A stretch of 64,000 nt of DNA, taken from Escherichia coli (GTDB taxonomy: Bacteria > Pseudomonadota > Gammaproteobacteria > Enterobacterales > Enterobacteriaceae). The notes under the pieces were generated by a model. That model was not told the DNA's origin, searched no databases, and saw only the letters and a program-made list of their open reading frames with translations. Numbering within the stretch: position 1 is the stretch's first letter; the number at the start of each line of letters is the position of its first letter. The position numbers were made by a program, and so were the translations under genes. The stretch is taken from assembly GCF_048403405.1 (NCBI RefSeq), contig NZ_CP183129.1, one strand, 5' to 3'. Positions 3,402 to 35,929 of the stretch are shown here, piece after piece.

Positions 3402-5549
3402 ATGAGTGATCGTTATGTGATAGAGGCCTGGCTGCGACCGGCGGTGGAATTGAACAGTGCTCTGGTGTCCGGCGGGGCGGCGTTTGTGTGTGCGGTAGCG
3501 CCCTGGGCAGTGGCATTGTCTCCGTCCGTGAGTTATGTCACCGCCGGTGCGTTTGCCGGTTTTTCCGCATTGCGGGCACATCAGGGATTCCGGGTATTAC
3601 GTTACCGCCGGAATCTCCGGCGTCTGCCCCGCTATCAGGTGACGTCGGCACAGGTGCCGGTCAGCCGGCAGCGTCTGTTTCTGGGAAAAGGGTTTCAGTG
3701 GCAGCAAAAACACACGCAACGCCTGCTGGAAACCCAGCGTCCGGAAGTGGAGCGGTATGTTCAGCCGCCGGCACATTACCGGCTGGCCCGGCAGTTTGAA
3801 CTCCGTTTTGAATCCCGTTTTCCGGCGGTTTGCCGGCTTTTGCAAAAAGACAGTTGGCTGAATCCGGTCCGCCCGCTGACGCCGGTGGGGGGGAATCCGG
3901 TGTTACACGGTGTGGAGCCGGATGAGGTGAATGTGACCATGGATTTGCGTGAACGGGTTGGTCATATGCTGGTACTGGGGACCACCCGTGTCGGCAAAAC
4001 CCGTCTGGCGGAAGTGCTGATCACTCAGGATATCCGCCGGGGGAATATCACGATTGTTTTTGATCCGAAAGGGGATGCGGATTTATTGCGCCGGATGTGG
4101 GCGGAAGCGCATCGTGCGGGGCGCAGTGAGGAGTTTTATGTTTTTCACTTGGGCTGGCCTGATATCAGTGCCCGTTATAACGCCATCGGGCGTTTTGGCC
4201 GAGTATCGGAAGTCGCGGGGCGGGTTGCCGGCCAGTTATCCGGGGAAGGGAACAGCGCGGCGTTCCGGGAGTTTGCCTGGCGGTTTGTTAATATCATTGC
4301 CCGGGCACTGGTTGCTCTGGGGGAGCGTCCGGATTATGCCAAAATTTTACGTTATGTCACCAATATCGGGGAACTCTATCAGACATATTCGATGCAGGTG
4401 ATTAAAGCACAACTACCTGATTTGTTTGCCCAAATCGAGAATGCGCAGAACGCGCTGACGGTCGAGGATGTGCCCCGTCATCTGCAAAGTGATCCGAAAG
4501 CTGTGGCTATCTGGGCAACGGAGCTGGCGTTAAGTAGTGAGAAAGGGAAAAAAATCTATGATCCGATTTTGGACGGGCTGCGCAGTGCGATCCGTTATGA
4601 CCGGACCTATTTTGATAAAATAGTGGCTTCTCTGCTGCCGTTACTGGAAAAACTGACTACCGGAAAAACTGCCGCCCTGTTGTCGCCGGATTACACCAAT
4701 ATGCAGGATCCCCGTCCGATTTTTGACTGGCAGCAGGTGATTCGGAAAAAAGGGATTGTATATGTCGGGCTGGATGCGTTATCGGATGCGGAAGTGGCGG
4801 CAGCGGTGGGGAATTCCATGTTTGCGGATTTGGTCTCGGTAGCCGGGCATATTTATAAATTCGGGACTCAGGATGGACTGCCGGAGGATGAGCACGCCGG
4901 AAAATTACCGATCAGCCTGCATTGCGATGAATTTAATGAACTGATGGGGGATGAATTTATTCCGTTACTGAACAAGAGCGGCGGCGCGGGGATTGAAGTG
5001 ACGGCCTACACACAGACCTGGTCTGATATTGAAGCCCGGCTGGGGAATGCGGCGAAATCGGCGCAGGTCACCGGTAACTTTAATACGCTGGTGATGTTGC
5101 GTGTCCGTGAACTGATGACCGCGAAATTACTGACGGAACAGTTACCGGAAGTGGATATTTACACCAAAACCCTGGTATCCGGGATCACCGATATTTCCAA
5201 TCCGAGGCAGGGGAGTGATTTTACCTCCAATACCCAGGACAGGGTCAGTATGGTGGCTAAACCGCTGCTGTTACCGGCAGATATTATTCAGTTACCGAAA
5301 GGACAGGCGTTTGCGCTGCTGGAAGGCGGGAAGTTATGGAAAATCAGGATGCCCCTGCCGGCGGCAGAGGCTGATGCCCTGATGCCACCGGATTTACAAA
5401 AAATCGCACAGTATATGGAGAAAAATTACCGTACCGGCGAAACTTGGTGGACTGCGTCATCATTTTCGGATGCGCGGTATGACAGCGGCGGTATGAATGT
5501 GGCTGAGATGGCACCGGATACCGAAGGGGGCAACGATGGCAACTGCTGA
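3402..5549 (+). CDS. traD: conjugative coupling protein TraD-like (VirD4 family ATPase)
   Basis: Walker A GTTRVGKT, N-terminal TM segments, about 715 aa; start placed at MSDRYV after the repeat array with a gagag RBS. Confidence 0.85.
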   Translation: MSDRYVIEAWLRPAVELNSALVSGGAAFVCAVAPWAVALSPSVSYVTAGAFAGFSALRAHQGFRVLRYRRNLRRLPRYQVTSAQVPVSRQRLFLGKGFQWQQKHTQRLLETQRPEVERYVQPPAHYRLARQFELRFESRFPAVCRLLQKDSWLNPVRPLTPVGGNPVLHGVEPDEVNVTMDLRERVGHMLVLGTTRVGKTRLAEVLITQDIRRGNITIVFDPKGDADLLRRMWAEAHRAGRSEEFYVFHLGWPDISARYNAIGRFGRVSEVAGRVAGQLSGEGNSAAFREFAWRFVNIIARALVALGERPDYAKILRYVTNIGELYQTYSMQVIKAQLPDLFAQIENAQNALTVEDVPRHLQSDPKAVAIWATELALSSEKGKKIYDPILDGLRSAIRYDRTYFDKIVASLLPLLEKLTTGKTAALLSPDYTNMQDPRPIFDWQQVIRKKGIVYVGLDALSDAEVAAAVGNSMFADLVSVAGHIYKFGTQDGLPEDEHAGKLPISLHCDEFNELMGDEFIPLLNKSGGAGIEVTAYTQTWSDIEARLGNAAKSAQVTGNFNTLVMLRVRELMTAKLLTEQLPEVDIYTKTLVSGITDISNPRQGSDFTSNTQDRVSMVAKPLLLPADIIQLPKGQAFALLEGGKLWKIRMPLPAAEADALMPPDLQKIAQYMEKNYRTGETWWTASSFSDARYDSGGMNVAEMAPDTEGGNDGNC

Positions 5550-6285
5550 GGTACGTCAGGAAACCCCGCGTCACCCGGCAAAAGACCCCGGTTTGCCGGC
5601 TAAATTGTTGTGGCACTGGCCGTGGGCCATCATCGGGGTATTACTGGCCTCCTGGGTATGCAGTCTGTTGATTGAGTGGGTCGGGATTGCGTTTTTCTGG
5701 GCGGACGAAGGGGCGGAGCACAGCCGGCAGGTGATGTTAACCGAGAGCGGGTATCTGTCAGAAGGGTTTACCCGTAGTCTGCTGATGTCCAGTCCGGCGC
5801 AGTGGCTGGCTCATACCGTTGAACAGGCATACCGGTGGCTGTTTGTGGAGTCCGGGCTGATGGAGAGCTGGCAGAACGTGTATCCTGTCAGCGGGAATGC
5901 AGTTGCCCGTGAACTGGATGACTGGCGGATTTGGTTTGTGTCCGAGCTGAGAGACTATCTGCTGGCGACGGTTTATGTGACGCTGACCTTTTTTATCCGG
6001 GTGACTATTCTGGTGCTGTCGATGCCCCTGTTTGTTATGGTGCTGTTGGTGGGCATGGTGGAAGGCTTTAACCGGCGTGATTTGCGGCGTTATGGTGCCG
6101 GGTATGAATCCAGTTTTGTGTATCACCACGCCAAGCGTTTTGTTAAGCCGGCCTTTTTTGTTCCGTGCATGATTTATCTGTCCTGGCCGTCTGCCATTTA
6201 CCCTAATCTGGTGTTGTTACCGGCGGCTCTGTTGTTCGGGCTTGCGGTGGCAGTGGCTACCGCGTCATTTAAAAAATATTTATAG
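5536..6285 (+). CDS. ICE integral membrane protein (PFL_4697-like)
   Basis: Multi-TM 250-aa ORF overlapping traD stop; start at MATAEV. Confidence 0.55.
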   Translation: MATAEVRQETPRHPAKDPGLPAKLLWHWPWAIIGVLLASWVCSLLIEWVGIAFFWADEGAEHSRQVMLTESGYLSEGFTRSLLMSSPAQWLAHTVEQAYRWLFVESGLMESWQNVYPVSGNAVARELDDWRIWFVSELRDYLLATVYVTLTFFIRVTILVLSMPLFVMVLLVGMVEGFNRRDLRRYGAGYESSFVYHHAKRFVKPAFFVPCMIYLSWPSAIYPNLVLLPAALLFGLAVAVATASFKKYL

Positions 6286-6293
6286 GCGCTGGG

Positions 6294-6328
6294 CAGAGAC
6301 ACACAACACTTGTTTTTGTGTGTCTCTG
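6294..6328. terminator. bidirectional hairpin between convergent genes
   Basis: 12-bp perfect stem cagagacacaca / tgtgtgtctctg with T-rich loop. Confidence 0.5.
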
Positions 6329-6372
6329 TCAGCAGACAAGCGGCTAGGCCGCGCGTCAGTGGTGTGATGGGG

Positions 6373-6981
6373 TTATCCTGCGCTGATTGATGGATTGATG
6401 AGTGTGAGCAGTAAATAAAGTGGCGGGTTGTCTGTCGTGATGAGTTGCCAGCCACATTGTGTCAGCAGTTCAGCTAGTGCGGCGATATCACCTCCGATTT
6501 TTACAGGTAGGTGTGCGGTCTGATGACCGTCAGTATCAAAAGCCTGCTCCAGTGCATTTTTGGATAAACAGATGGTGTTGCTGAGCGTATCCGGGCTCAC
6601 CGCATGTCGTCTGTGCCACGATTTATCACTCAATAACTGATAGGCAAAGCCTGCCTCCTTGGCCGATTCAAGCGCATAAGTGAGCCGGAACAGATCGCTC
6701 TGCTCGTGTAATGCGCCTGTACAGGAGCGGTACAGATAATCCAGTTTTTGTGGCAGTTTGGCCCGGCTCCCCAGTGTACGTCCCTGTTGAAGCAGCCAGT
6801 CAATATCCGGCGTAACGTCACGGTCAAAACGGCGTTGCTTTTTGGCGGTTGCCAGCCAGCGTATTAAAAACAGGTTTTTCTGCATGTCGGACTGCACCAG
6901 CCCCTCCCTGCGGGCCAGATGCAGGGCAACCAGTGCACACCAGGCAAAATGCCCAGTTTTTCGGGTGATGGTCTGACTCAT
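6373..6981 (-). CDS. hypothetical protein, divergent from the pore-gene operon (possible regulator)
   Basis: 202-aa ORF on the opposite strand inside the transfer region, with AT-rich divergent promoter region 6982-7127. Confidence 0.5.
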   Translation of the reverse strand: MSQTITRKTGHFAWCALVALHLARREGLVQSDMQKNLFLIRWLATAKKQRRFDRDVTPDIDWLLQQGRTLGSRAKLPQKLDYLYRSCTGALHEQSDLFRLTYALESAKEAGFAYQLLSDKSWHRRHAVSPDTLSNTICLSKNALEQAFDTDGHQTAHLPVKIGGDIAALAELLTQCGWQLITTDNPPLYLLLTLINPSISAG

Positions 6982-7127
6982 AGGCTCACTTTTATTTATT
7001 CATTTCAGCTATTTTCGCAAAAAGCAAGCAATATAAAATTAAAAAATTTGGAAAACTAATTGTTTGCTGTTTTTTCTATCCGCCTTTTTTACCCTGACTC
7101 CACGTTAACCGTCTTTAAGGAGTCGTT

Positions 7128-7454
7128 ATGCGATTATTTTCTCCGCTTATTTCCCTGTTTGCGTTGGTTGTCAGTGCATTTGGGGTATTGCCTGCTCAGG
7201 CCGCTGAAAAAGATGAACTGGCGCTGACGTTAAAGCAGCTCGATCACATCCAGGCCAGCCTGGAGCGCGCCCGTATTCAGGCAAATCAGGACAATCACGC
7301 CCGTTTTTATTTTGATTATTCCCGCGCCTCCAGAGAGGTGGAGATTATCCGGCAGGGGATTGTCCGCTATCTGGAGCCTTCCCGGGCCCAGCCCACGGTG
7401 CCGGTTAATGTGGCGGAGCCGCTGCGCGGGGATTACCGCCGGGAGCAGCGATGA
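7128..7454 (+). CDS. ICE protein, RAQPRD-like family
   Basis: Signal peptide; SRAQP motif near C-terminus; good RBS aaggag. Confidence 0.55.
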   Translation: MRLFSPLISLFALVVSAFGVLPAQAAEKDELALTLKQLDHIQASLERARIQANQDNHARFYFDYSRASREVEIIRQGIVRYLEPSRAQPTVPVNVAEPLRGDYRREQR

Positions 7455-7690
7455 ATCCGTCACAGCAGGCGGCATTTGAGGCTGCTGCCGGCTCGGGGAT
7501 GTCTCCGGCTGTTCTGAATCTGTTGTGTATCGGGGCATTACTGGCGGTGCTGTTTTTATGGGCAGCCTGGGGACTGGTCGATGTTTACCGGGGCTGGGCA
7601 AATGAAAATGTTCGTACTGCAAGGGTGGGGCAGTTTGCTGTCCGGGCAGTGATATTACTGGTGGTCTGCATCTGGATGTTTGCCAGTTGA
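7451..7690 (+). CDS. small ICE membrane protein (PFL_4701-like)
   Basis: 79 aa, two hydrophobic helices, start overlaps upstream stop. Confidence 0.5.
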   Translation: MNPSQQAAFEAAAGSGMSPAVLNLLCIGALLAVLFLWAAWGLVDVYRGWANENVRTARVGQFAVRAVILLVVCIWMFAS

Positions 7691-7731
7691 GTGTGCTGTT
7701 TAATTTATTTTACAGAATGAAAGGTCATTTT

Positions 7732-8100
7732 ATGGATATGAAATCATTTTGGGGACGTGGTGTCCGTCGTATTGGTGCGTCAGTGGTGACGTTATTCACT
7801 TTATTCAGTCTGATGCCGGCGTATGCCGCACTGCCTTCGGTGGAACCCCCTTCTTCCGGTGGCGGCGGCGGACTGATGGACACCATTAAAGGCTATCTTA
7901 ATGACGGCATTGTGATTGGCGGGCTGGTTGTGGCTGCGACGGCTTTTATCGTGGTGGCCATTGCCGCGGTCACCACGTTCAATGAAGTGCGCGACCAAAA
8001 GGCTGGCTGGGGTAAATTCGGTACAATTATTGTAGTCGGTGTCGTCCTGATTGTGGCGGTCGTCTGGCTGGCCGGAAAATCCGCCACTATTATTTTTTAA
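7732..8100 (+). CDS. ICE membrane protein, pilin-like (TIGR03745-like)
   Basis: Signal peptide, glycine-rich stretch, two C-terminal hydrophobic helices. Confidence 0.55.
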   Translation: MDMKSFWGRGVRRIGASVVTLFTLFSLMPAYAALPSVEPPSSGGGGGLMDTIKGYLNDGIVIGGLVVAATAFIVVAIAAVTTFNEVRDQKAGWGKFGTIIVVGVVLIVAVVWLAGKSATIIF

Positions 8101-8529: not shown

Positions 8530-9166
8530 ATTTCGTCATGCCCTGCAAAACCGGGACCAGCACATTCTGACACTGCGGATGATCTGCGGGGTGCTGGTGC
8601 TCTGCCTGTTTGTGGCCTTTGCCGGCTGGATGCGGGCGCCGGCTAAACTGACGATCCATAATCCGCCGGATTTGCGCTCCGGCAGTACCCGGGCATGGTG
8701 GGAAGTGCCGCTGCCGACGGTGTACGCTTTCAGCTTTTATATTTTTCAGCAACTGAATGCCTGGCCGAAAGACGGCGAGGTGGATTATCCGCGAAAGATT
8801 GCACAGCTCAGTGCCTATCTGACGCCGTCCTGCCGGGCGTATTTTGAGAAAGAGGCCGCTTACCGTACTACGCTCGGGGAGCTGAAAGGGCGTTCCCGGG
8901 TGGTGTATGAGATCCCGGGACGCGGGTTCAGTGAGGATAAAGTCCGGGTGATTGACCGGGATAACTGGATCGTGCGCCTGGATTTGGTAGCGGATGAATA
9001 TTTTAGCGCGGAGCCGGTCAAGCGAGCGACGGTACGTTATCCGGTGAAAGTGGTGCGCTGGGAGGGCGATCCGGAAAGTAATCCGTTTGGTCTGGCCCTG
9101 GACTGCTATGACGGGCTGCCTCAGCGTCTGGAAGCGGCGGAGCAGAATAAGGAGGTCAGTCAATGA
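8522..9166 (+). CDS. ICE protein (PFL_4704-like)
   Basis: 214 aa, N-terminal TM, translationally coupled. Confidence 0.5.
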   Translation: MSKFRHALQNRDQHILTLRMICGVLVLCLFVAFAGWMRAPAKLTIHNPPDLRSGSTRAWWEVPLPTVYAFSFYIFQQLNAWPKDGEVDYPRKIAQLSAYLTPSCRAYFEKEAAYRTTLGELKGRSRVVYEIPGRGFSEDKVRVIDRDNWIVRLDLVADEYFSAEPVKRATVRYPVKVVRWEGDPESNPFGLALDCYDGLPQRLEAAEQNKEVSQ

Positions 9167-11552: not shown

Positions 11553-12034
11553 CGTATTTTGCGAAGCCGGGGGTGCTGGCTGTGACGCCGGTGACGTTTC
11601 CGCTGGTGTTTGTGTTCAGTGCCGGACAGGCCGGTTGTACTGGAAGTCATTTTTGCCTGACGGTGGCCGGTCATCAGGTGTTTGATGAGGAGCAACAGCA
11701 GCTGATTGCCGGCATGTCACCGGCGACGATACAGCTGGCGTGGCAGAGTACCGCCGGTGAGACGCCCGGGGCGGTTCTGTCTGTGGGCCGTCACCGGGTG
11801 GGGCTGAGTGACAACGACATTACCGTTTACCGGTTTGCCCCGCGGGATGAGGCGTGGCCGCAGGACAGTGACTGGGATCGCCTGCTGTACACCGTTTTTA
11901 AAGGGGAGGCGCCGGATAAAGCCGGCTGGCAATGTGTGCCTTTTTCACTATCTGAACTGAGCTGTCACGGTGAGTTTGCCCGGCTGACCTGCCGGGGGGC
12001 GATCCTGAAGGGCGCGGGAGGCGTCATATCATGA
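11549..12034 (+). CDS. hypothetical ICE protein
   Basis: 161-aa ORF with GTG start preceded by ggagg, coupled in operon. Confidence 0.4.
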   Translation: MTYFAKPGVLAVTPVTFPLVFVFSAGQAGCTGSHFCLTVAGHQVFDEEQQQLIAGMSPATIQLAWQSTAGETPGAVLSVGRHRVGLSDNDITVYRFAPRDEAWPQDSDWDRLLYTVFKGEAPDKAGWQCVPFSLSELSCHGEFARLTCRGAILKGAGGVIS

Positions 12035-12468
12035 GAATGATGAAATGTGTGATGAAAAGCAGAGTGCTGTGCGCACTGGTGTTGTTGCTGGCCGGCTGTG
12101 CCACCTCCAAAGAGGAGCTGCTGCCGGCGGGAAACAGCGACATGATGGCCATCTGGTCCGGCAGACAGGCTGATCCGAACGGTGCGGCGGACAGCCGGAC
12201 GGTGACGGAGACCGCCCGCAGCGCCCTGCGACGCGCCCTGACGAATGATGAAGCCGCGCGCCTTCAGCAGGCGGACACCGCGTATACCCGGACACAAAGC
12301 AGTGAGATCCATCAGCAGTTTCCGCGTCTGCCGAACCCGGACATGGTGATGTATGTGTTCCCGCATCTCTCGGCCGGCAATCTGCCGGTGCCGGGATACA
12401 GTACGGTGTTTCCGTTTTACCATCAAGTGCAGTATGCCCTGCCGGGTGAGCGTGTGGAGGGCTTGTGA
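12031..12468 (+). CDS. ICE lipoprotein
   Basis: Lipobox LLAGC after signal peptide. Confidence 0.6.
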   Translation: MRMMKCVMKSRVLCALVLLLAGCATSKEELLPAGNSDMMAIWSGRQADPNGAADSRTVTETARSALRRALTNDEAARLQQADTAYTRTQSSEIHQQFPRLPNPDMVMYVFPHLSAGNLPVPGYSTVFPFYHQVQYALPGERVEGL

Positions 12469-22419: not shown

Positions 22420-22493
22420 CAGAACAAGCTATTTCTAAAAAAGTTAACTAATAATATTTTGAAGCCAGCTGCAAAATTTAGTTTTGTGGCTGG

Positions 22494-22901
22494 CTAATCT
22501 TCGTCAATATTTATTCCGTTCATATAATATCCAAAACCTTGGTTGCCATTTCTAAAGTCGTCACTATTGCCAACGAGATTGGATTGCCATTCATTATTGT
22601 TATCAGTGGATTGAATGTTATTTCCTGAAGAAATATCAATGTGTTCTATTACAGAAAATAAAATCACCAACGCTCCAAAGGTAAATAGGATGTACAAACT
22701 GAAATAAGCCAGTAACGCGATGACTGCGAGAGTTATAGATACCAGTGGAATATGCCCCAGCCAACCCGGCATATTTTTGCTTTTGGCGCTTGCCACACAG
22801 TTCTTATCGAAAGCCTTCAATTTTTTGATTAGCCATTTTGCTTTATAAGCTGCTTTTATGCCCCAGCGTTCTCCTCTGGAAGCGGCTGTTTTATCACTCA
22901 T
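22494..22901 (-). CDS. hypothetical small membrane protein (AT-rich cargo)
   Basis: 135 aa, central long hydrophobic segment, Asn/Asp-rich tail, very low GC. Confidence 0.4.
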   Translation of the reverse strand: MSDKTAASRGERWGIKAAYKAKWLIKKLKAFDKNCVASAKSKNMPGWLGHIPLVSITLAVIALLAYFSLYILFTFGALVILFSVIEHIDISSGNNIQSTDNNNEWQSNLVGNSDDFRNGNQGFGYYMNGINIDED

Positions 22902-23243
22902 TTCCCCCTCCGGTAATCAGTGAGTCTGATTTATCTCATGCTTGTCGTCTATCGTTAATACAATTTTAGGTCGATTTTTAATCATTGTCTACATCTTGTG
23001 AGTTATGCACATATCCACGGTCACCAAGCCAGTGCAACCCGATGCCAACAAGCAATCGGGTAAACGGGAGCGTACAGGGCATCGGCCCTGATGGTGGCGG
23101 TGGGTATGTGTATAACTTTTTTGTTGCCTTCATATAAAAATCTTATTCTTTCATCTGGATGGATTTATTGAATTTGATTTTTTATGTCAGTTTAAGTAAG
23201 TTTTTAATATGTATCCGAGTCCTTGTATATAGGAGATGATAAT

Positions 23244-23543
23244 ATGAATTTTATTTTTTGGTTTGTGGTCTTAATAGGGGCGGGATATTTGTGGAGGAGG
23301 AGGGGTTGGTTCAGTAAAATAAGGAAGCAATACTCAAGGAGAAAAACAACATTAAATGGTAACAAAGGATGTTTATATAATAAAAAAAATGACAATGATG
23401 CTTTGGAAGGTAATGGGGATTGTAATAATTTTTATTCTGAGAATAAAGAAAGTTTCTTTTGGTTAATGATTGAGAGAGGTATTAAATTTTACAGAAAAGA
23501 ATATTTGACTACGATTACTGAAAAAAATATCATGATAAGTTAG
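23244..23543 (+). CDS. hypothetical small membrane protein (AT-rich cargo)
   Basis: N-terminal TM followed by basic stretch; RBS aggag 8 nt upstream of ATG 23244. Confidence 0.4.
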   Translation: MNFIFWFVVLIGAGYLWRRRGWFSKIRKQYSRRKTTLNGNKGCLYNKKNDNDALEGNGDCNNFYSENKESFFWLMIERGIKFYRKEYLTTITEKNIMIS

Positions 23544-23782
23544 TGAGCTGGTTTGGTGAGAAATGTTATATACATTGTCAGGTTAGTTTAGGGAGTTTAT
23601 TTATATTCCCAAAACAAAAAAATTTTACTGATGAAGAACAAAAACGTTTTTTTTCTGTTTGTAATAGAATGTCCTTGGATTTTATTTTAACATTTAAAAC
23701 TAATATGCCCTTCTTACGTGTTTCTGTTGACTCTATGAAAAATAAACCGCCTGTTTGGGATGTTTATGATAAATCCAAATAA
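23543..23782 (+). CDS. hypothetical small protein, overlapping previous stop
   Basis: 79-aa ORF, ATGA overlap with upstream gene suggests coupling. Confidence 0.3.
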   Translation: MSWFGEKCYIHCQVSLGSLFIFPKQKNFTDEEQKRFFSVCNRMSLDFILTFKTNMPFLRVSVDSMKNKPPVWDVYDKSK

Positions 23783-23957
23783 AAACATATCTGATTGTTG
23801 AGTTTTCGTGATTAAAGATGGCATTGATTATTAATACGATGAAGAACCAACAAGGGGATATTTAATAAAGAGAAAAAGGAGGATGTAAAATATTCTCCTT
23901 TTTCTTTATCGGGTATTGACGAAAAAAGAAAGTTTGATTAAATTTACCACGTTACAC

Positions 23958-24176
23958 CGTTGCTTAATGCAACATTGCCAATGCTTCGGTTGTCTGAGAG
24001 AAGCGCCTACGGGTGACAACAATGCCAATCCGGCAATCTGAGAGGAACGCCTACGGGTGATTGCCACTGCCAATCCTCGGGTCATCTGAGACGAGGGCCT
24101 ACGGGCGATGACAGAACTCCGTTCGTCCTTGAAATCGACGGAGGGTGATAACAGAATAGCGTTATCATCAGGATTA
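23958..24176 (+). repeat. Structured direct repeat copy 1 (three tandem hairpin units plus two further hairpins)
   Basis: Near-identical to 26392-26612; three about 45-nt units with stems gttgtc/gacaac, ggcaatc/gattgcc, gtcatc/gatgac around a conserved loop tgaga..gcctacggg. Confidence 0.8.
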
Positions 24177-24389
24177 ACTGCACTTCAGTGACCATGTCAC
24201 AGCTATCCGGTCACTCGGATATCCACAAAAAAGCAGAGTATGCGATAACGTGTATCTGCCTCTTCTGATGTGTTCTGACGAATACGTCCTGCTTTCTGCA
24301 ACCTTTGTATGCCCGGTATGACGCGTTTCCATTGCGCAGCTTTGGAAAGCGGCATCTTCGGAGCAATACATTGAGCAGCAGAATGATGG

Positions 24390-24436
24390 GCGTGCGTCAC
24401 TTTCGTCAAGTGAAACGAAGACAAAGTGACGCACGC
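24390..24436. promoter_or_regulatory. Long imperfect palindrome upstream of the recombinase-like gene
   Basis: gcgtgcgtcactttcgtc ... gacaaagtgacgcacgc, about 17-bp arms, no flanking T-run. Confidence 0.4.
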
Positions 24437-24824
24437 AAGTGCATACGCTCAGAACGCTTCAATACTGGTCTTACAGCAAAACTGACAATCTGACAGACAT
24501 GTAATGCATTGCTCAGAACGGCTGAAAGTCTTTCAACGCTCAACGTTTATATGATGATAAAAACGTATAACATTATGAAAAAAGGAGAAAAAACGACACG
24601 ATACCAAGGCGACGTCAGGAAACTGACGGACGGAGGTGCCCTGATAACGGGGGCCGGTCTGATGACCGCAAACAGTTCAGAGAACTGATTTGATACCTCT
24701 CAACAACTCAACCTTTTATCGCCCCGGTGCTCAGGTATCTGTCAGGTCGCAGGATGCGCAATATAAAACCGTCGCGCCGGGAAAAGGTAACCAGTTGAGA
24801 GCGAAAGAGGCGGAGAATCAGAGA

Positions 24825-25733
24825 ATGTCCAGAAGAGCAAAAGCCCTGTCCCGTGAAATGCATATCCTTGCACGTCAGGCCGGAGGGAGCTTTAAAACCA
24901 TTGCAGACCGGGTCAAAATTGCAGAACGGGTTGCGGCAGAGCTGGCCGGGTTGAATATTCAGATACGATCTGTTGAGCAACTGAAATCCCGCCATATTGA
25001 AATGTATATCCATGCCCGCAGAGAACAGAATATCAGTTTACGCAGCTGTCAAAACGAAATGTCGGCTATCCGGGCGATATTTCGTGTTGCCGGACGTCAT
25101 AAACTGGCTGACCCTAAACATGAGCGCCTCAGTAATGAGGCGCTGGGGCTTTCAGGTGCCAGCAGGGCTGGCACCCGTACCGCGATATCGGACGAGCGCT
25201 TTCACGAAGCGCTCGCTCGGATTGAGCCTTATGATCAGGGGGTGGCATTAACTATGCAGTTATCCCGTAGTCTGGGATTGAGAAATGAAGAAGCCGTGCA
25301 GTCAGTAAAATCATTACGGACCTGGCAACAGGCGCTTAAAAACGGTAAAGATCGCGTTCATGTGGTTTTTGGGACAAAAGGAGGCAGACCCCGTGAAGCA
25401 TTAGTGCCGGATAAAGCCCGTGTATTAACATTAATTAATAAAGCCATTGAATATGCGGATAAACATAACGGTTATTTAATTAATCGTCCGTCATTACATT
25501 CTGCCAAAGATCGTTATATTAATGTGATGCGACGGATAGGCGGATTTATTCACGAAGAATCAAATCATGGTTTACGGTATGCCTATGCTCAGGATGTTGA
25601 AAAATATTATCTCAGTCAGGGATTCAGTCAAAAGGAAGCCTATGCATTAACCTCCATGGATTTAGGGCATGGTGACGGTCGTGGCGATTATATTAAACGG
25701 GTTTATAGTCAGAAAGGAGATATTGAGGAATAA
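24825..25733 (+). CDS. tyrosine recombinase-like protein (integrase-fold)
   Basis: Motifs in canonical order: LGLRNEE (Arg), HGLRYAYA (HxxR), LGHGDGRGDYIKRVY (candidate Tyr nucleophile); start taken at ATG 24825 after aagaggcggaga, though the ORF could extend to 24690. Confidence 0.5.
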   Translation: MSRRAKALSREMHILARQAGGSFKTIADRVKIAERVAAELAGLNIQIRSVEQLKSRHIEMYIHARREQNISLRSCQNEMSAIRAIFRVAGRHKLADPKHERLSNEALGLSGASRAGTRTAISDERFHEALARIEPYDQGVALTMQLSRSLGLRNEEAVQSVKSLRTWQQALKNGKDRVHVVFGTKGGRPREALVPDKARVLTLINKAIEYADKHNGYLINRPSLHSAKDRYINVMRRIGGFIHEESNHGLRYAYAQDVEKYYLSQGFSQKEAYALTSMDLGHGDGRGDYIKRVYSQKGDIEE

Positions 25734-25740
25734 GATAAAA

Positions 25741-26352
25741 ATGAAAGTCTGTTTAATTATTTTGTTTATTAATTTTGCTTTTTGTTTTCCGTTAATGGCG
25801 AAGACGTTATTTTTAGGTGATTCATTAACGGCTGTTTATGAAATGTCAGCAAAATATGTTTTGGATGAAAAAATAAAAACAGAATATGTTTCCGGTTCGG
25901 GGTTAATAAATAAAAGTAAAAAAGATTGGATCGCTTTCGTGAATAATTTCGATTTGCGGGAGTTTGATAATGTGATTATTAGTCTCGGAACAAATGATTT
26001 TGTTCAATATGGTTCGGATGAATGGCTGAAATATTACAGTCTGGTATTTCAATTCATTGCTGAAATTCAAAGTGAAAATCCGTTAGCGACAATTGTCTGG
26101 ATATCTCCACCACATTTAAAAAATCCGGAACATGAACGTTATTTAATACATACCCGGCATATAATTAAACACAGTGCGATGTTATTAAATATTCATTATC
26201 TGGATATTAATCAGCCTCATATATTAGGAACGCAATGGCAATCTGTTATTCATAATGAAACTGTACGAACTGATGATGGAATACATATTACCCGTAAAGG
26301 GGGAGTACGGGTGATCAGAGAAGTGGTAAAAATCCTGAATGGGCAGGATTGA
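25741..26352 (+). CDS. secreted SGNH/GDSL-family hydrolase (esterase/acylhydrolase)
   Basis: Signal peptide then GDSL block (LFLGDSLTA), GTND block, C-terminal DDGIH; very low GC; RBS gagga. Confidence 0.6.
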   Translation: MKVCLIILFINFAFCFPLMAKTLFLGDSLTAVYEMSAKYVLDEKIKTEYVSGSGLINKSKKDWIAFVNNFDLREFDNVIISLGTNDFVQYGSDEWLKYYSLVFQFIAEIQSENPLATIVWISPPHLKNPEHERYLIHTRHIIKHSAMLLNIHYLDINQPHILGTQWQSVIHNETVRTDDGIHITRKGGVRVIREVVKILNGQD

Positions 26353-26391
26353 CAAAGATAAAAAAACGGCTAAAAATGAATCTGCTTATCT

Positions 26392-26612
26392 CGTTGCGTA
26401 ATGCAACTTGCCAATGCTTCGGTTGTCTGAGAGAAGCGCCTACGGGTGACAACAATGCCAATGTTCCGGCAATCTGAGAGGAACGCCTACGGGTGATTGC
26501 CACTGCCAATCCTCGGGTCATCTGAGACGGGAGCCTACGGGCGATGACAGAACTCCGTTCGTCCTTGAAATCGACGGAGGGTGATAACAGAATAGCGTTA
26601 TCATCAGGATTA
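26392..26612 (+). repeat. Structured direct repeat copy 2
   Basis: Same orientation as 23958-24176; differs by 3 substitutions and two small indels. Confidence 0.8.
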
Positions 26613-26640: not shown

Positions 26641-26700
26641 CCGCTGACGGGGAAATCACCCGTCATCAGGGAATTTCTCCGTTTTTTCAGGAGAAATTCA
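26641..26700 (+). promoter_or_regulatory. Two-hairpin leader sequestering the RBS of the downstream gene
   Basis: gacggg-loop-cccgtc followed by tttctcc-TTTTTT-ggagaaa ending 4 nt before ATG 26701; same architecture at 28081-28147. Confidence 0.5.
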
Positions 26701-27063
26701 ATGAAGGTATCTACATTTCCGGAATCGTCTTTTTTTGACGATCTGCACTCTCTCACGCAACTGCATCACCTCTCAGGTGAGCTCGACATGGTTCTTGCTT
26801 TTGTCCGTCTGGATATTGGCGAGCACCCGGACGAAGATAATTTTCCGCCAAACTTCTGGATAATCAGTGCCGTTGCAGAGCAACTGGGCGCGTTATCTGT
26901 GGAGGCTGATTTTACCCGTCCACATCTTGAGAAAATGGTCCGCGCTGTCTGGAAAGCGGCTGAGCAAACGCCTTATGCGTCTGACTTTCGCCGTATCTAC
27001 AACGATGCGATCAAAAATGCACAGTTTGAAGATCCGGTTGAAGCGCTGATGTTTGGTGCTTAA
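26701..27063 (+). CDS. hypothetical acidic protein (ICE cargo)
   Basis: 120-aa ORF directly after the structured leader. Confidence 0.45.
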   Translation: MKVSTFPESSFFDDLHSLTQLHHLSGELDMVLAFVRLDIGEHPDEDNFPPNFWIISAVAEQLGALSVEADFTRPHLEKMVRAVWKAAEQTPYASDFRRIYNDAIKNAQFEDPVEALMFGA

Positions 27064-28080: not shown

Positions 28081-28147
28081 CCTACCCGACGGGGAAACTC
28101 CCCGTCAGGTGGACGTTTCTCCGTCTTTTTTTACCGGAGAAACACAC
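28081..28147 (+). promoter_or_regulatory. Two-hairpin leader sequestering the RBS (second copy)
   Basis: gacgggg-aaact-ccccgtc and tttctccg-tcttttttta-cggagaaa immediately before ATG 28148. Confidence 0.5.
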
Positions 28148-35853: not shown

Positions 35854-35929
35854 TGGTGCCCGGACTCGGAATCGAACCAAGGACACGGGGATTTTCAATC
35901 CCCTGCTCTACCGACTGAGCTATCCGGGC
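35854..35929 (-). tRNA. pheV: tRNA-Phe (GAA anticodon)
   Basis: Reverse complement reads GCCCGGATAGCTCAGTCGGTAGAGCAGGGGATTGAAAATCCCCGTGTCCTTGGTTCGATTCCGAGTCCGGGCACCA, the canonical E. coli tRNA-Phe, 76 nt with CCA. Confidence 0.95.

Follow-up and report, generated by a model that had tools for sequence, protein, structure and literature searches.

A 64,000-nt stretch of an Escherichia coli genome (contig NZ_CP183129.1 of assembly GCF_048403405.1; hereafter the window) contains two direct repeats of about 220 bp that bracket the genes for a tyrosine-recombinase-like protein and a signal-peptide SGNH/GDSL hydrolase. This arrangement raises the question of whether the repeats are recombination sites and the bracketed segment a cassette that the adjacent protein can excise or amplify. 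An earlier note on this DNA offered that reading alongside a second one, a pair of structured non-coding RNA genes, and could assign the repeats to no named element class. A covariance-model search does name them, as copies of the STAXI motif (Rfam RF01728). We consider the segment to be not a mobile cassette but, most likely, the DNA-processing module, with relaxase gene and origin of transfer (oriT), of an ICEPm1-type integrative conjugative element (ICE), punctuated by copies of STAXI.

STAXI copies, their fold and their promoters

Pairwise alignment showed that the repeats differ by three substitutions, one 1-nt indel and one 3-nt indel, and repeat finding in the window independently recovered both of them together with an internal periodicity of about 47 nt. 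A scan of the whole window against Rfam at gathering thresholds returned four matches: two to STAXI, one to EFASI (RF02957) and one to tRNA (Table 1). Both STAXI matches span the full model (positions 1 to 153 of 153), with E-values of 3e-23 and 5e-26 that exclude a chance origin of the repeat structure.

Each repeat is composed of one 5′ hairpin, three H-type pseudoknot units and two 3′ hairpins. The sequence and the Rfam alignment confirm much of what had been described before, namely three units of about 45 nt with stems that differ in sequence but stay complementary (gttgtc/gacaac, ggcaatc/gattgcc and gtcatc/gatgac), a conserved tgaga...gcctacggg loop core and the two 3′ hairpins. Overlooked had been the opening hairpin (GTTGC-TTAAT-GCAAC) and the pseudoknot helices of the three units (GCTTC/GAAGC, GTTCC/GGAAC and CCTCG/CGAGG). 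In these helices the sequence 5′ of each unit stem pairs with the 3′ part of the supposed loop, which makes each unit an H-type pseudoknot. All units in the window carry a UACG tetraloop. The 3′ hairpins of the left copy are CTCCGTTCG/CGACGGAG with a CCTTGAAA loop, followed by GGTGATAAC/GTTATCATC, and both fall outside the Rfam model. The right copy has an identical architecture and precedes an antirestriction operon of small open reading frames (ORFs) and ArdC.

STAXI was described by Weinberg et al. 2010 (PMC2864571) as a tandem pseudoknot near genes for Ssb, topoisomerase, antirestriction proteins and XerDC integrases; a role as single-stranded DNA was considered there, and RNA was favored owing to the UUCG tetraloops. 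The pseudoknot unit, which in STAXI occurs at least twice and usually three times, is present three times in each window copy, and the UNCG tetraloops and the characteristic neighbors of the motif in Enterobacterales are found here as well, in the form of topB, STY4534/ssb, Integrase_1 and ArdC. Among lineages, the number of units per array ranges from two to at least four. Because the three-unit model begins or stops inside longer arrays, Rfam coordinates understate STAXI in some lineages.

To examine the fold, we used a 44-nt single-unit covariance model, which yielded 143 STAXI units (120 distinct) from 64 loci. Standard pairs occupy 97.6% of the cells of the unit alignment, compared to 82.3% in shuffles and 30–43% when the partners are slid. 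The pseudoknot helix is not part of the search model and therefore provides an independent test; in the 120 distinct units it is 95.8% paired, with compensatory changes at 5/5 pairs. The earlier proposal of selection on a folded single strand is thus borne out by strong covariation. As to which strand folds, 101 of 119 units open the inner hairpin with a G.U pair, and across units there are 168 G.U pairs against 10 A.C pairs (an A.C pair on the sense strand being G.U on the opposite strand). Of the 120 units, 103 have a UUCG and 8 a UACG tetraloop, giving UNCG in 111, and the closing pair is C-G in 104. The excess of G.U over A.C pairs marks the sense strand as the folding strand, and the UNCG tetraloops are of an RNA-stabilizing type. 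Together these observations point to STAXI being a sense-strand RNA.

Both window copies are preceded by a sigma-70-type promoter-like site (Table 1), and the −35 hexamer of the right-hand site overlaps the stop codon of the SGNH gene. When STAXI copies were tested for a −35 box (mostly TTGACA or TTGACG), a 16–18-nt spacer and a −10-like hexamer, 21 of 25 had such a site with the −10 end placed 12–15 nt before the first hairpin. At random positions in these loci the identical test succeeded in 2.2% of cases (binomial P ~1e-31). In the remaining four copies the Rfam match starts at a later unit of a longer array. The upstream sequences cannot be aligned between copies, yet the promoter geometry is fixed, and the hexamers lie upstream of the fold and outside any hairpin. 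Counted from the predicted start, the second 3′ hairpin ends after about 225 nt, in agreement with the 228-nt STAXI RNAs seen by published RNA sequencing (RNA-seq) in Pectobacterium, one of which is the 3′ untranslated region (UTR) of topB. Published reverse transcription quantitative PCR (RT-qPCR) detected both STAXI and EFASI RNAs in E. coli vesicles. STAXI looks like the start of a transcript, with initiation predicted a few nucleotides before the first hairpin. The second of the two earlier readings, a pair of structured non-coding RNA genes, is supported by the promoter, the G.U bias, the UNCG loops and these published RNA data.

The single-stranded-DNA role raised in the original description has to be weighed against this. 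STAXI would then fold on the transferred strand and serve as a priming (ssi-type) site or another signal for establishment in the recipient, a role suited to its association with ssb, topB, ArdC and the oriT/relaxase region, to the presence of three co-oriented dispersed copies in the island, and to its retention beside a conserved hairpin, described below, in relaxase-less plasmids and islands that have no downstream gene to regulate. We regard this as rather unlikely, because the mostly C-G-closed UNCG tetraloops stabilize RNA and not DNA, the 3-bp inner helix with its conserved G.U pair would be weak in DNA, 21 of 25 copies have a promoter of double-stranded-DNA type at a fixed distance, and the RNA has been detected. 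In addition, the promoter hexamers are not inside a hairpin, unlike those of Frpo.

A further reading takes the tandem pseudoknot RNA for a ToxI-like antitoxin against a downstream toxin, as in type III toxin-antitoxin systems. Tandem pseudoknots of about 45 nt behind a promoter and ahead of hairpins do bear a superficial likeness to ToxI and CptI. However, the stem sequences differ between units, where near-identical processed repeats would be expected, and the downstream genes vary over the three island positions (STY4534, relaxase-like gene, small ORFs), with no ToxN/AbiQ-type endoribonuclease found by NCBIfam or in the annotation. Such a system is scarcely credible here. We also considered STAXI as a sponge for CsrA and dropped this idea, as the loops are without consistent GGA motifs by sequence reading.

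The bracketed segment in its island and in related elements

According to the annotation of an identical copy, the window belongs to an ICEPm1/PFGI-1-type ICE at tRNA-Phe. The island runs from traD and the mating-pair genes through taaP, TraG-N, the STAXI-bracketed segment, small ORFs, ArdC, a CbtA-family gene and DUF1281 to a TraI-domain protein, a site-specific integrase and the tRNA gene. The island's own integrase is thus about 8 kb from the STAXI segment and adjoins the attachment site; the TraI-domain gene also lies immediately inside tRNA-Phe. The nrp/pks cargo of ICEPm1 is found in the island's upstream part. The annotation of strain CRE287, whose copy equals the window over the queried region, gives traD (window positions ~3700–5550) as frameshifted, and that copy of the island may be defective in transfer.

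A third STAXI copy (121.3 bits) lies in the same island about 44 kb upstream of the window start, in gene orientation between topB and a STY4534-family gene, with no recombinase nearby. The three copies are 96–98% identical over the Rfam-matched span, and the similarity runs through the whole ~220 bp, including the 3′ hairpins. Each heads a different group of genes: topB is followed by STAXI and then STY4534/ssb; the left window copy by a hairpin, EFASI and the recombinase-fold gene (with SGNH); and the right copy by small ORFs and ArdC. Neither the third copy nor the promoter-like sites had been noticed before, and the same is true of EFASI and the conserved hairpin inside the bracketed segment.

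We compared the segment with homologs of the 302-aa recombinase-fold protein found on E. coli chromosomes and on Salmonella (pSGI4), Klebsiella, Erwinia and Pantoea plasmids, and scanned the ten loci obtained in this way against Rfam. The homologs are 42–57% identical to the window protein, except for one near-relative at 98%. All ten loci have STAXI, ~350–450 nt, EFASI, ~100–150 nt and the gene, on one strand throughout. In 9/10 loci a second STAXI copy follows the gene, or the gene plus one small variable gene; in the exception, cargo is inserted downstream. Synteny is constant as well, from TraG-N through variable genes, the module and small ORFs to antirestriction/ArdC and DUF1281. Because this order recurs in the ten loci and in dozens of Enterobacterales species, the bracketed segment represents old backbone rather than a cassette.

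Species-wide, an exact-pattern STAXI scan of one genome per species gave 80 loci, almost all of them in genera of the Enterobacterales, and nhmmer and tblastn on the scan loci identified 94 STAXI arrays in 79 loci. The arrays followed by the hairpin or EFASI number 36, of which 27 then have the gene, 5 have no gene in the available downstream sequence and 4 lie where the locus ends too soon. Another 22 are of the topB type (STAXI followed by STY4534 and often then ssb), 16 come directly after the gene (right-type), 5 are probable right-type arrays ahead of ArdC, and 15, mostly in short loci, are unclassified. No array among the 94 was opposite in strand to its marker gene. A locus of Pantoea brenneri (retrieved locus 6206–7890) has STAXI, an Integrase_1-type gene and a zinc-finger primase-like gene, with EFASI and the hairpin not detected in it; it is possibly a small mobilizable island with its own version of the module.

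Within E. coli, STAXI-like sequence is present in 642 of 5,426 complete genomes, at one to six places per genome, and all places examined are at fixed positions inside islands or plasmids. In strains LF82 and EC554 STAXI stands between topB and STY4534, and in O157 and O145 strains it is found in the ter/ure island, in both settings with no Integrase_1 gene nearby. The 3.2-kb region around the window segment occurs in 27 of the 5,426 genomes, where it is always chromosomal and always complete. The earlier note had named, as an observation that would tell against it, a match of the units to a widespread repeat family (REP, ERIC or MITE) found without the recombinase. This was found in part: the unit belongs to a family that has a name, is widespread and is also seen where there is no recombinase. 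One to six places per genome at fixed positions in islands and plasmids do not fit a dispersed repeat of the REP, ERIC or MITE type.

These data bear directly on the idea of an excisable or amplifiable cassette, in which the STAXI copies would be att-like sites of the adjacent tyrosine recombinase and would act, as integron attC sites do, as folded single strands. In its favor, a protein with the complete set of tyrosine-recombinase catalytic residues is encoded between direct repeats that are 98% identical, nine of the ten homologous loci likewise have a STAXI copy on either side of the gene, and, as with attC sites, the stems change in sequence under a conserved structure. The comparative evidence argues otherwise. 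STAXI stands at topB without such a gene in this island and in 22 other arrays, the bracketed content always has the same gene at the same backbone position, and no empty-site or amplified variant was found among the 27 E. coli carriers. The left and right copies are only 57–86% identical in seven of the ten elements, and each copy has its own promoter and RNA-type tetraloops, the folding strand being the sense strand throughout. Moreover, the protein has been classed as a relaxase, and the integrase of the island is located elsewhere. We therefore find no support for the cassette and consider it very unlikely.

Over all ten elements the left and right copies are 57–97% identical. We rejected concerted evolution as proof of site-specific recombination, as this range fits occasional gene conversion. 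In E. coli strain 774 the two STAXI copies (retrieved locus 6262–6412 and 8653–8803) are 97% alike, belong to a two-unit variant and are only ~70% identical to the window copies, with each copy keeping its own flank. In a sister record, whose match statistics are identical to those of strain 774, EFASI and the gene are 96.7% identical to those of the window. Because the strain 774 copies were replaced together while their flanks and the intervening gene stayed close to those of the window, we infer that the near-identity of the island copies probably reflects gene conversion among dispersed copies and not site-specific exchange. The strain 774 island also contains a group II intron D1-D4-7 fragment (Rfam, 59.9 bits; retrieved locus 11959–12100) downstream of the CbtA-family gene.

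The protein, the block upstream of its gene and the flanking segments

Pfam places the protein (WP_004252296.1) among tyrosine recombinases, as had been proposed, and a structure check with AlphaFold2 and Foldseek agrees. The model has a predicted local distance difference test (pLDDT) score of 88, and its top Foldseek matches are all to Xer, lambda Int, Tn1549 Int, XerH or Cre, over both domains, with template modeling (TM) scores of 0.5–0.6 and 11–18% identity. When the protein family was used as a sequence profile against the PDB, no recombinase or other solved structure came up, and a fold search was needed, which makes the kinship a remote one. NCBIfam applied to ten local proteins gave just sub-threshold XerC/XerD matches and nothing for the small ORFs. 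Residues R153, K185, H248xxR251, H282, Y289 and Y294 are invariant in the family alignment; both the two-domain fold and the R-K-H-R-H/W-Y set of the tyrosine recombinase superfamily are present. We saw no excision or inversion variants around the gene in the comparative data (27 E. coli carriers and 10 homologous loci) and identified no paired core sites.

In a recent preprint (bioRxiv 10.64898/2026.01.13.699239), WP_004252296.1 is among the seed sequences of the MOB_M profile, as is WP_033567157.1 of SGI-4. MOB_M is the class of relaxases, related to tyrosine recombinases, to which TcpM, MobK and MpsA belong. The preprint ties this class to islands with mating-pair formation system G (MPF-G) and puts oriT in the stretch that separates the mating-pair operon from the relaxase gene. 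Experiments support MpsA and MobK as relaxases of an atypical kind that have inverted-repeat-rich oriTs beside them; only for these two have site- and strand-specific nicking that requires the catalytic tyrosine, and a need for the protein in transfer, been shown. The window protein is most likely a conjugative relaxase of the MOB_M class, and not an integrase.

The place of oriT in such systems draws attention to the non-coding region between the left STAXI and the gene. EFASI starts 417 nt past the left repeat and ends 80 nt upstream of the ATG at 24825. The family description (RF02957, 2017) puts EFASI downstream of STAXI, at a distance of a few hundred base pairs, and upstream of integrase genes, and the window match scores above the gathering threshold at this expected position, with an identical layout in 10/10 homologous loci. 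In the gap between STAXI and EFASI lies a hairpin, embedded in a conserved block at ~24334–24451, that matched no Rfam family in the whole-window scan. It is kept in 11/11 aligned elements, with nine invariant stem pairs (GCGTCACTT/AAGTGACGC) and three further pairs nearer the loop that show compensatory changes. This conservation exceeds that of the adjacent genes; the proteins of these elements are only 42–57% identical to the window protein. With nhmmer, the hairpin was found in 35 species-wide loci and also in O157 TAI islands and small plasmids. In other lineages the stem is ~17 bp long (CTGCGCG...CGCGCAG). The hairpin is a candidate for the relaxase-recognition or nic-region hairpin of oriT.

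The upstream block is more conserved than the gene, and it is carried without the gene by two kinds of element. The first are small plasmids. In six STAXI-anchored loci STAXI, hairpin and EFASI have no gene after them, and in all four of the six that were scanned Rfam finds RNAI, which identifies the loci as small ColE1-type plasmids. Together with complete plasmids, they represent Pantoea, Mixta, Chimaeribacter, Cronobacter and Kosakonia. A plasmid collection contains complete block-bearing plasmids of 4.4–8.4 kb from Pantoea, Cronobacter, Kosakonia and Mixta. Two of these, CP134743 (4398 bp) and CP101598 (6233 bp), were examined whole; they encode Rop and a few small proteins, are typed as non-mobilizable, and have no relaxase or recombinase among their proteins. 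Small relaxase-less plasmids also retain the positioned STAXI promoter. In Pantoea agglomerans FC61912-B, CP134743 shares the strain with CP134742, an MPF-G plasmid bearing the full module, and in Pantoea sp. BRR-3P the small plasmid CP155070 and the large CP155068 both have the block. The small plasmids are likely hitchers that mimic the oriT of such elements. Rahnella aquatilis pHW30076 (5857 bp, encoding Rop) has a good EFASI, a partial hairpin and a weaker STAXI match at ~1428–1996; this block may be degenerating or used in part.

The second kind are the TAI islands, whose STAXI copy is the one common in EHEC genomes. The ter/ure island of E. coli O157:H7 EDL933 has the whole block, namely STAXI, the hairpin and a diverged EFASI that is below the Rfam threshold (retrieved locus 6984–7760); here and in the O145:H28 counterpart the block is followed by IS66 elements, with no relaxase gene. 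In the same preprint, TAI islands are classed as oriT-only elements: their oriT region matches the experimentally localized SGI-4 oriT at 60% identity, and they otherwise share almost nothing with helper islands. As the block is the similarity found between the TAI island and SGI-4, it is likely that the block formed by the left STAXI, the hairpin and EFASI contains an SGI-4-like oriT.

The retention of the block admits another explanation, in which the protein would carry out genuine site-specific recombination at the gap hairpin, as a multimer resolvase for instance; STAXI and EFASI would be mere 5′-UTR regulators, and the small plasmids would borrow the site. ColE1-type plasmids rely on the resolution of multimers, and in two strains such a plasmid is accompanied by a large one that bears the block. 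The protein has a core-binding and a catalytic domain with all catalytic residues, whereas MobK, TcpM and MpsA are without the core-binding domain, and the island already has a TraI-type protein. Tyrosine-recombinase core sites have a 6–8-bp spacer, and a 14–17-bp hairpin with a 19–21-nt loop is unlike them. In addition, integrated O157 ter islands keep the block although a resolution site is useless there, its place between mating-pair and antirestriction genes is typical of oriT, and the preprint (bioRxiv 10.64898/2026.01.13.699239) relates it to an experimentally localized oriT. We judge a resolvase unlikely. We also set aside EFASI as a guide ("bridge"-type) RNA for a recombinase, given that the protein is classed as a relaxase and that EFASI occurs without the gene.

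Returning to the DNA-processing module that we favor, we hypothesize that oriT lies within the block of left STAXI, hairpin and EFASI, which would explain why relaxase-less plasmids and islands keep it. STAXI itself would function at the RNA level, being a promoter-proximal leader or else a ~225-nt small RNA common to three operons. It could couple the expression of the three DNA-processing operons, possibly via three equivalent pseudoknots offered to one binding partner, and the promoter of the left copy would drive transcription across the oriT hairpin. A bolder version holds that STAXI and EFASI are working parts of oriT, such that transcription across the hairpin, the RNAs, or both are needed in cis for the relaxase. 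This would account for the intact promoter and both RNA motifs in the hitchers, and it would mean an RNA-assisted or transcription-activated origin of transfer and a function for two orphan Rfam motifs. We put it forward as a tentative possibility and on balance doubt it.

Several observations weigh against the module as we describe it. The assignment of WP_004252296.1 to MOB_M in the preprint is bioinformatic, the island additionally encodes a TraI-domain protein, and related plasmids are typed MOBH. Flannery et al. 2011 showed that ICEPm1 needs "a relaxase". That relaxase-less elements keep the whole block, including STAXI and EFASI, could equally mean a cis-acting role of STAXI at the DNA level, and no function of STAXI is reported in the literature searched; the role of a shared leader is one that we infer. 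With direct repeats this long (220 bp) and this similar (98% identity), RecA-dependent recombination could still delete or duplicate the 2.4-kb segment now and then. Finally, minimum-free-energy folding of one STAXI unit as RNA, DNA or antisense DNA gave z-scores of −1.4 to −1.8, which are not significantly beyond shuffles, and the structural case therefore rests on covariation; as nested folding cannot represent pseudoknots, these z-scores are uninformative.

Positions of the features are collected in Table 1. The SGNH/GDSL hydrolase reported earlier is confirmed by its Pfam match and its FLGDSLT motif behind a signal-like N-terminus. Its gene has a GC content of 0.33, compared to 0.46 in the neighboring recombinase-fold gene. 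In other elements the gene in this slot is different or absent, and SGNH homologs occupy it only in Proteus, Providencia and Xenorhabdus loci in the species-wide scan. The hydrolase gene is a lineage-specific passenger.

Table 1. Positions of features in the window, in order along the sequence
Feature	Position	Strand	Description
Promoter-like site of left STAXI (sigma-70-type)	23916–23944	+	TTGACG, 17 nt, TAAATT; −10 end 13 nt 5′ of first hairpin
Left STAXI copy (RF01728)	23958–24176 (repeat); 23958–24115 (Rfam match)	+	112.1 bits; gathering score 40.5
Conserved hairpin in STAXI-EFASI gap	24390–24436	+	GCGTGCGTCACTTT..19 nt..AAAGTGACGCACGC; 14-bp perfect inverted repeat
EFASI (RF02957)	24593–24744	+	78.1 bits; gathering score 51.2
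Tyrosine-recombinase-fold gene	24825–25733	+	302 aa; WP_004252296.1; Pfam Phage_int_SAM_2 (PF12834) and Integrase_1
SGNH/GDSL (DUF459) hydrolase gene	25741–26352	+	Signal-like N-terminus, then FLGDSLT; Pfam DUF459/GDSL
Promoter-like site of right STAXI (sigma-70-type)	26349–26377	+	TTGACA, 17 nt, AAAAAT; −10 end 14 nt 5′ of first hairpin
Right STAXI copy (RF01728)	26392–26612 (repeat); 26392–26551 (Rfam match)	+	123.3 bits; gathering score 40.5
Conserved leader, right STAXI to first ORF (ATG 26701)	26644–26703	+	Hairpin GACGGGG..CCCGTC, then TTTCTCC-GTTTTTT-cAGGAGAAA
tRNA-Phe, island attachment site	35857–35929	−	Rfam tRNA match

Two flanking segments show features of their own. Downstream of the right STAXI copy, the conserved leader at 26644–26703 gave no Rfam match in the whole-window scan; a second copy of it lies at 28088–28129, ahead of small ORFs, and at least 11 other loci have the leader after a STAXI copy of the right-hand or topB type, among them the topB copies of LF82 and EC554. 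It can sequester a Shine-Dalgarno element or act as a terminator or attenuator. Upstream, positions 22420–23905, between TraG-N and the left STAXI promoter, are 34% GC and contain small ORFs and a terminator-like hairpin (23871–23905). The variable cargo of related islands ends at ~23903–23913, just 5′ of that promoter. Because the slot in those islands holds contact-dependent inhibition (CDI) toxin or nonribosomal peptide synthetase (NRPS) genes, this segment is a cargo insertion hotspot that ends exactly at the promoter.

Comparison with known systems

The feature itself is already known, STAXI since 2010, EFASI since 2017 and the relaxase class since 2026. What we did not find in the searchable literature are the positioned promoter, the 3′ hairpins beyond the Rfam model, the three fixed positions in the island and the membership of STAXI in a putative oriT-region block. 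STAXI and EFASI are bioinformatically defined bacterial RNA motifs that are still without a function, and MOB_M relaxases and their oriTs were recognized as abundant just in 2025–2026; this analysis ties the two together. In a large family of conjugative islands of enterobacteria, the two motifs and the hairpin make up the non-coding block ahead of the MOB_M gene, and plasmids and islands that lack genes for a relaxase or recombinase have acquired a copy of it. The analysis thereby pinpoints likely mobilizable elements among those that current typing tools call non-mobilizable. The remaining interest lies in the function of STAXI and EFASI and in their link to the oriT region of tyrosine-recombinase-like relaxases.

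As a motif, the repeats are STAXI and differ in nothing from RF01728. For EFASI, the "integrase" of the window that corresponds to the family description is now classed as a MOB_M relaxase, and the motif also occurs without such a gene on small ColE1-type plasmids.

The Frpo/ssi repeats of F and ColIb-P9 are dispersed, co-oriented elements of ~200–330 bp upstream of ssb- and antirestriction-type establishment genes near oriT. In Frpo the −35 and −10 boxes are rebuilt within a single long hairpin formed by the template (transferred) strand. STAXI is alike in its dispersed, co-oriented copies near ssb and antirestriction genes and oriT. It differs in forming small pseudoknots on the sense strand, with RNA-type tetraloops and a promoter outside the fold; a template-strand hairpin that rebuilds the promoter is not what we find.

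With integron attC sites, STAXI shares a conserved structure with varying sequence and a tyrosine-recombinase-fold protein next door. Unlike integron cassettes, the segment has no variable content and no empty/filled polymorphism, with the same gene always present and 27/27 E. coli carriers full. STAXI is also not a single imperfect palindrome, has its own promoters and occurs far from the protein gene, as in the 22 arrays at topB.

The closest comparison is with the MOB_M/oriT systems of TcpM (pCW3), MobK (pIGRK), MpsA/MpsB (SGI1) and SGI-4. The window protein likewise has a tyrosine-recombinase catalytic domain with a conserved tyrosine, and its gene likewise lies directly downstream of a structured, inverted-repeat-rich non-coding region after the mating-pair genes. 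MobK, TcpM and MpsA have no core-binding domain, whereas the window protein has an N-terminal core-binding-like domain (PF12834). The oriT of SGI1 is a 125-bp GC-rich segment, compared to a conserved block of ~800 bp with two Rfam motifs in the window. Unlike those systems, the window island, whose MOB_M relaxase is a predicted one, also has a TraI-domain protein.

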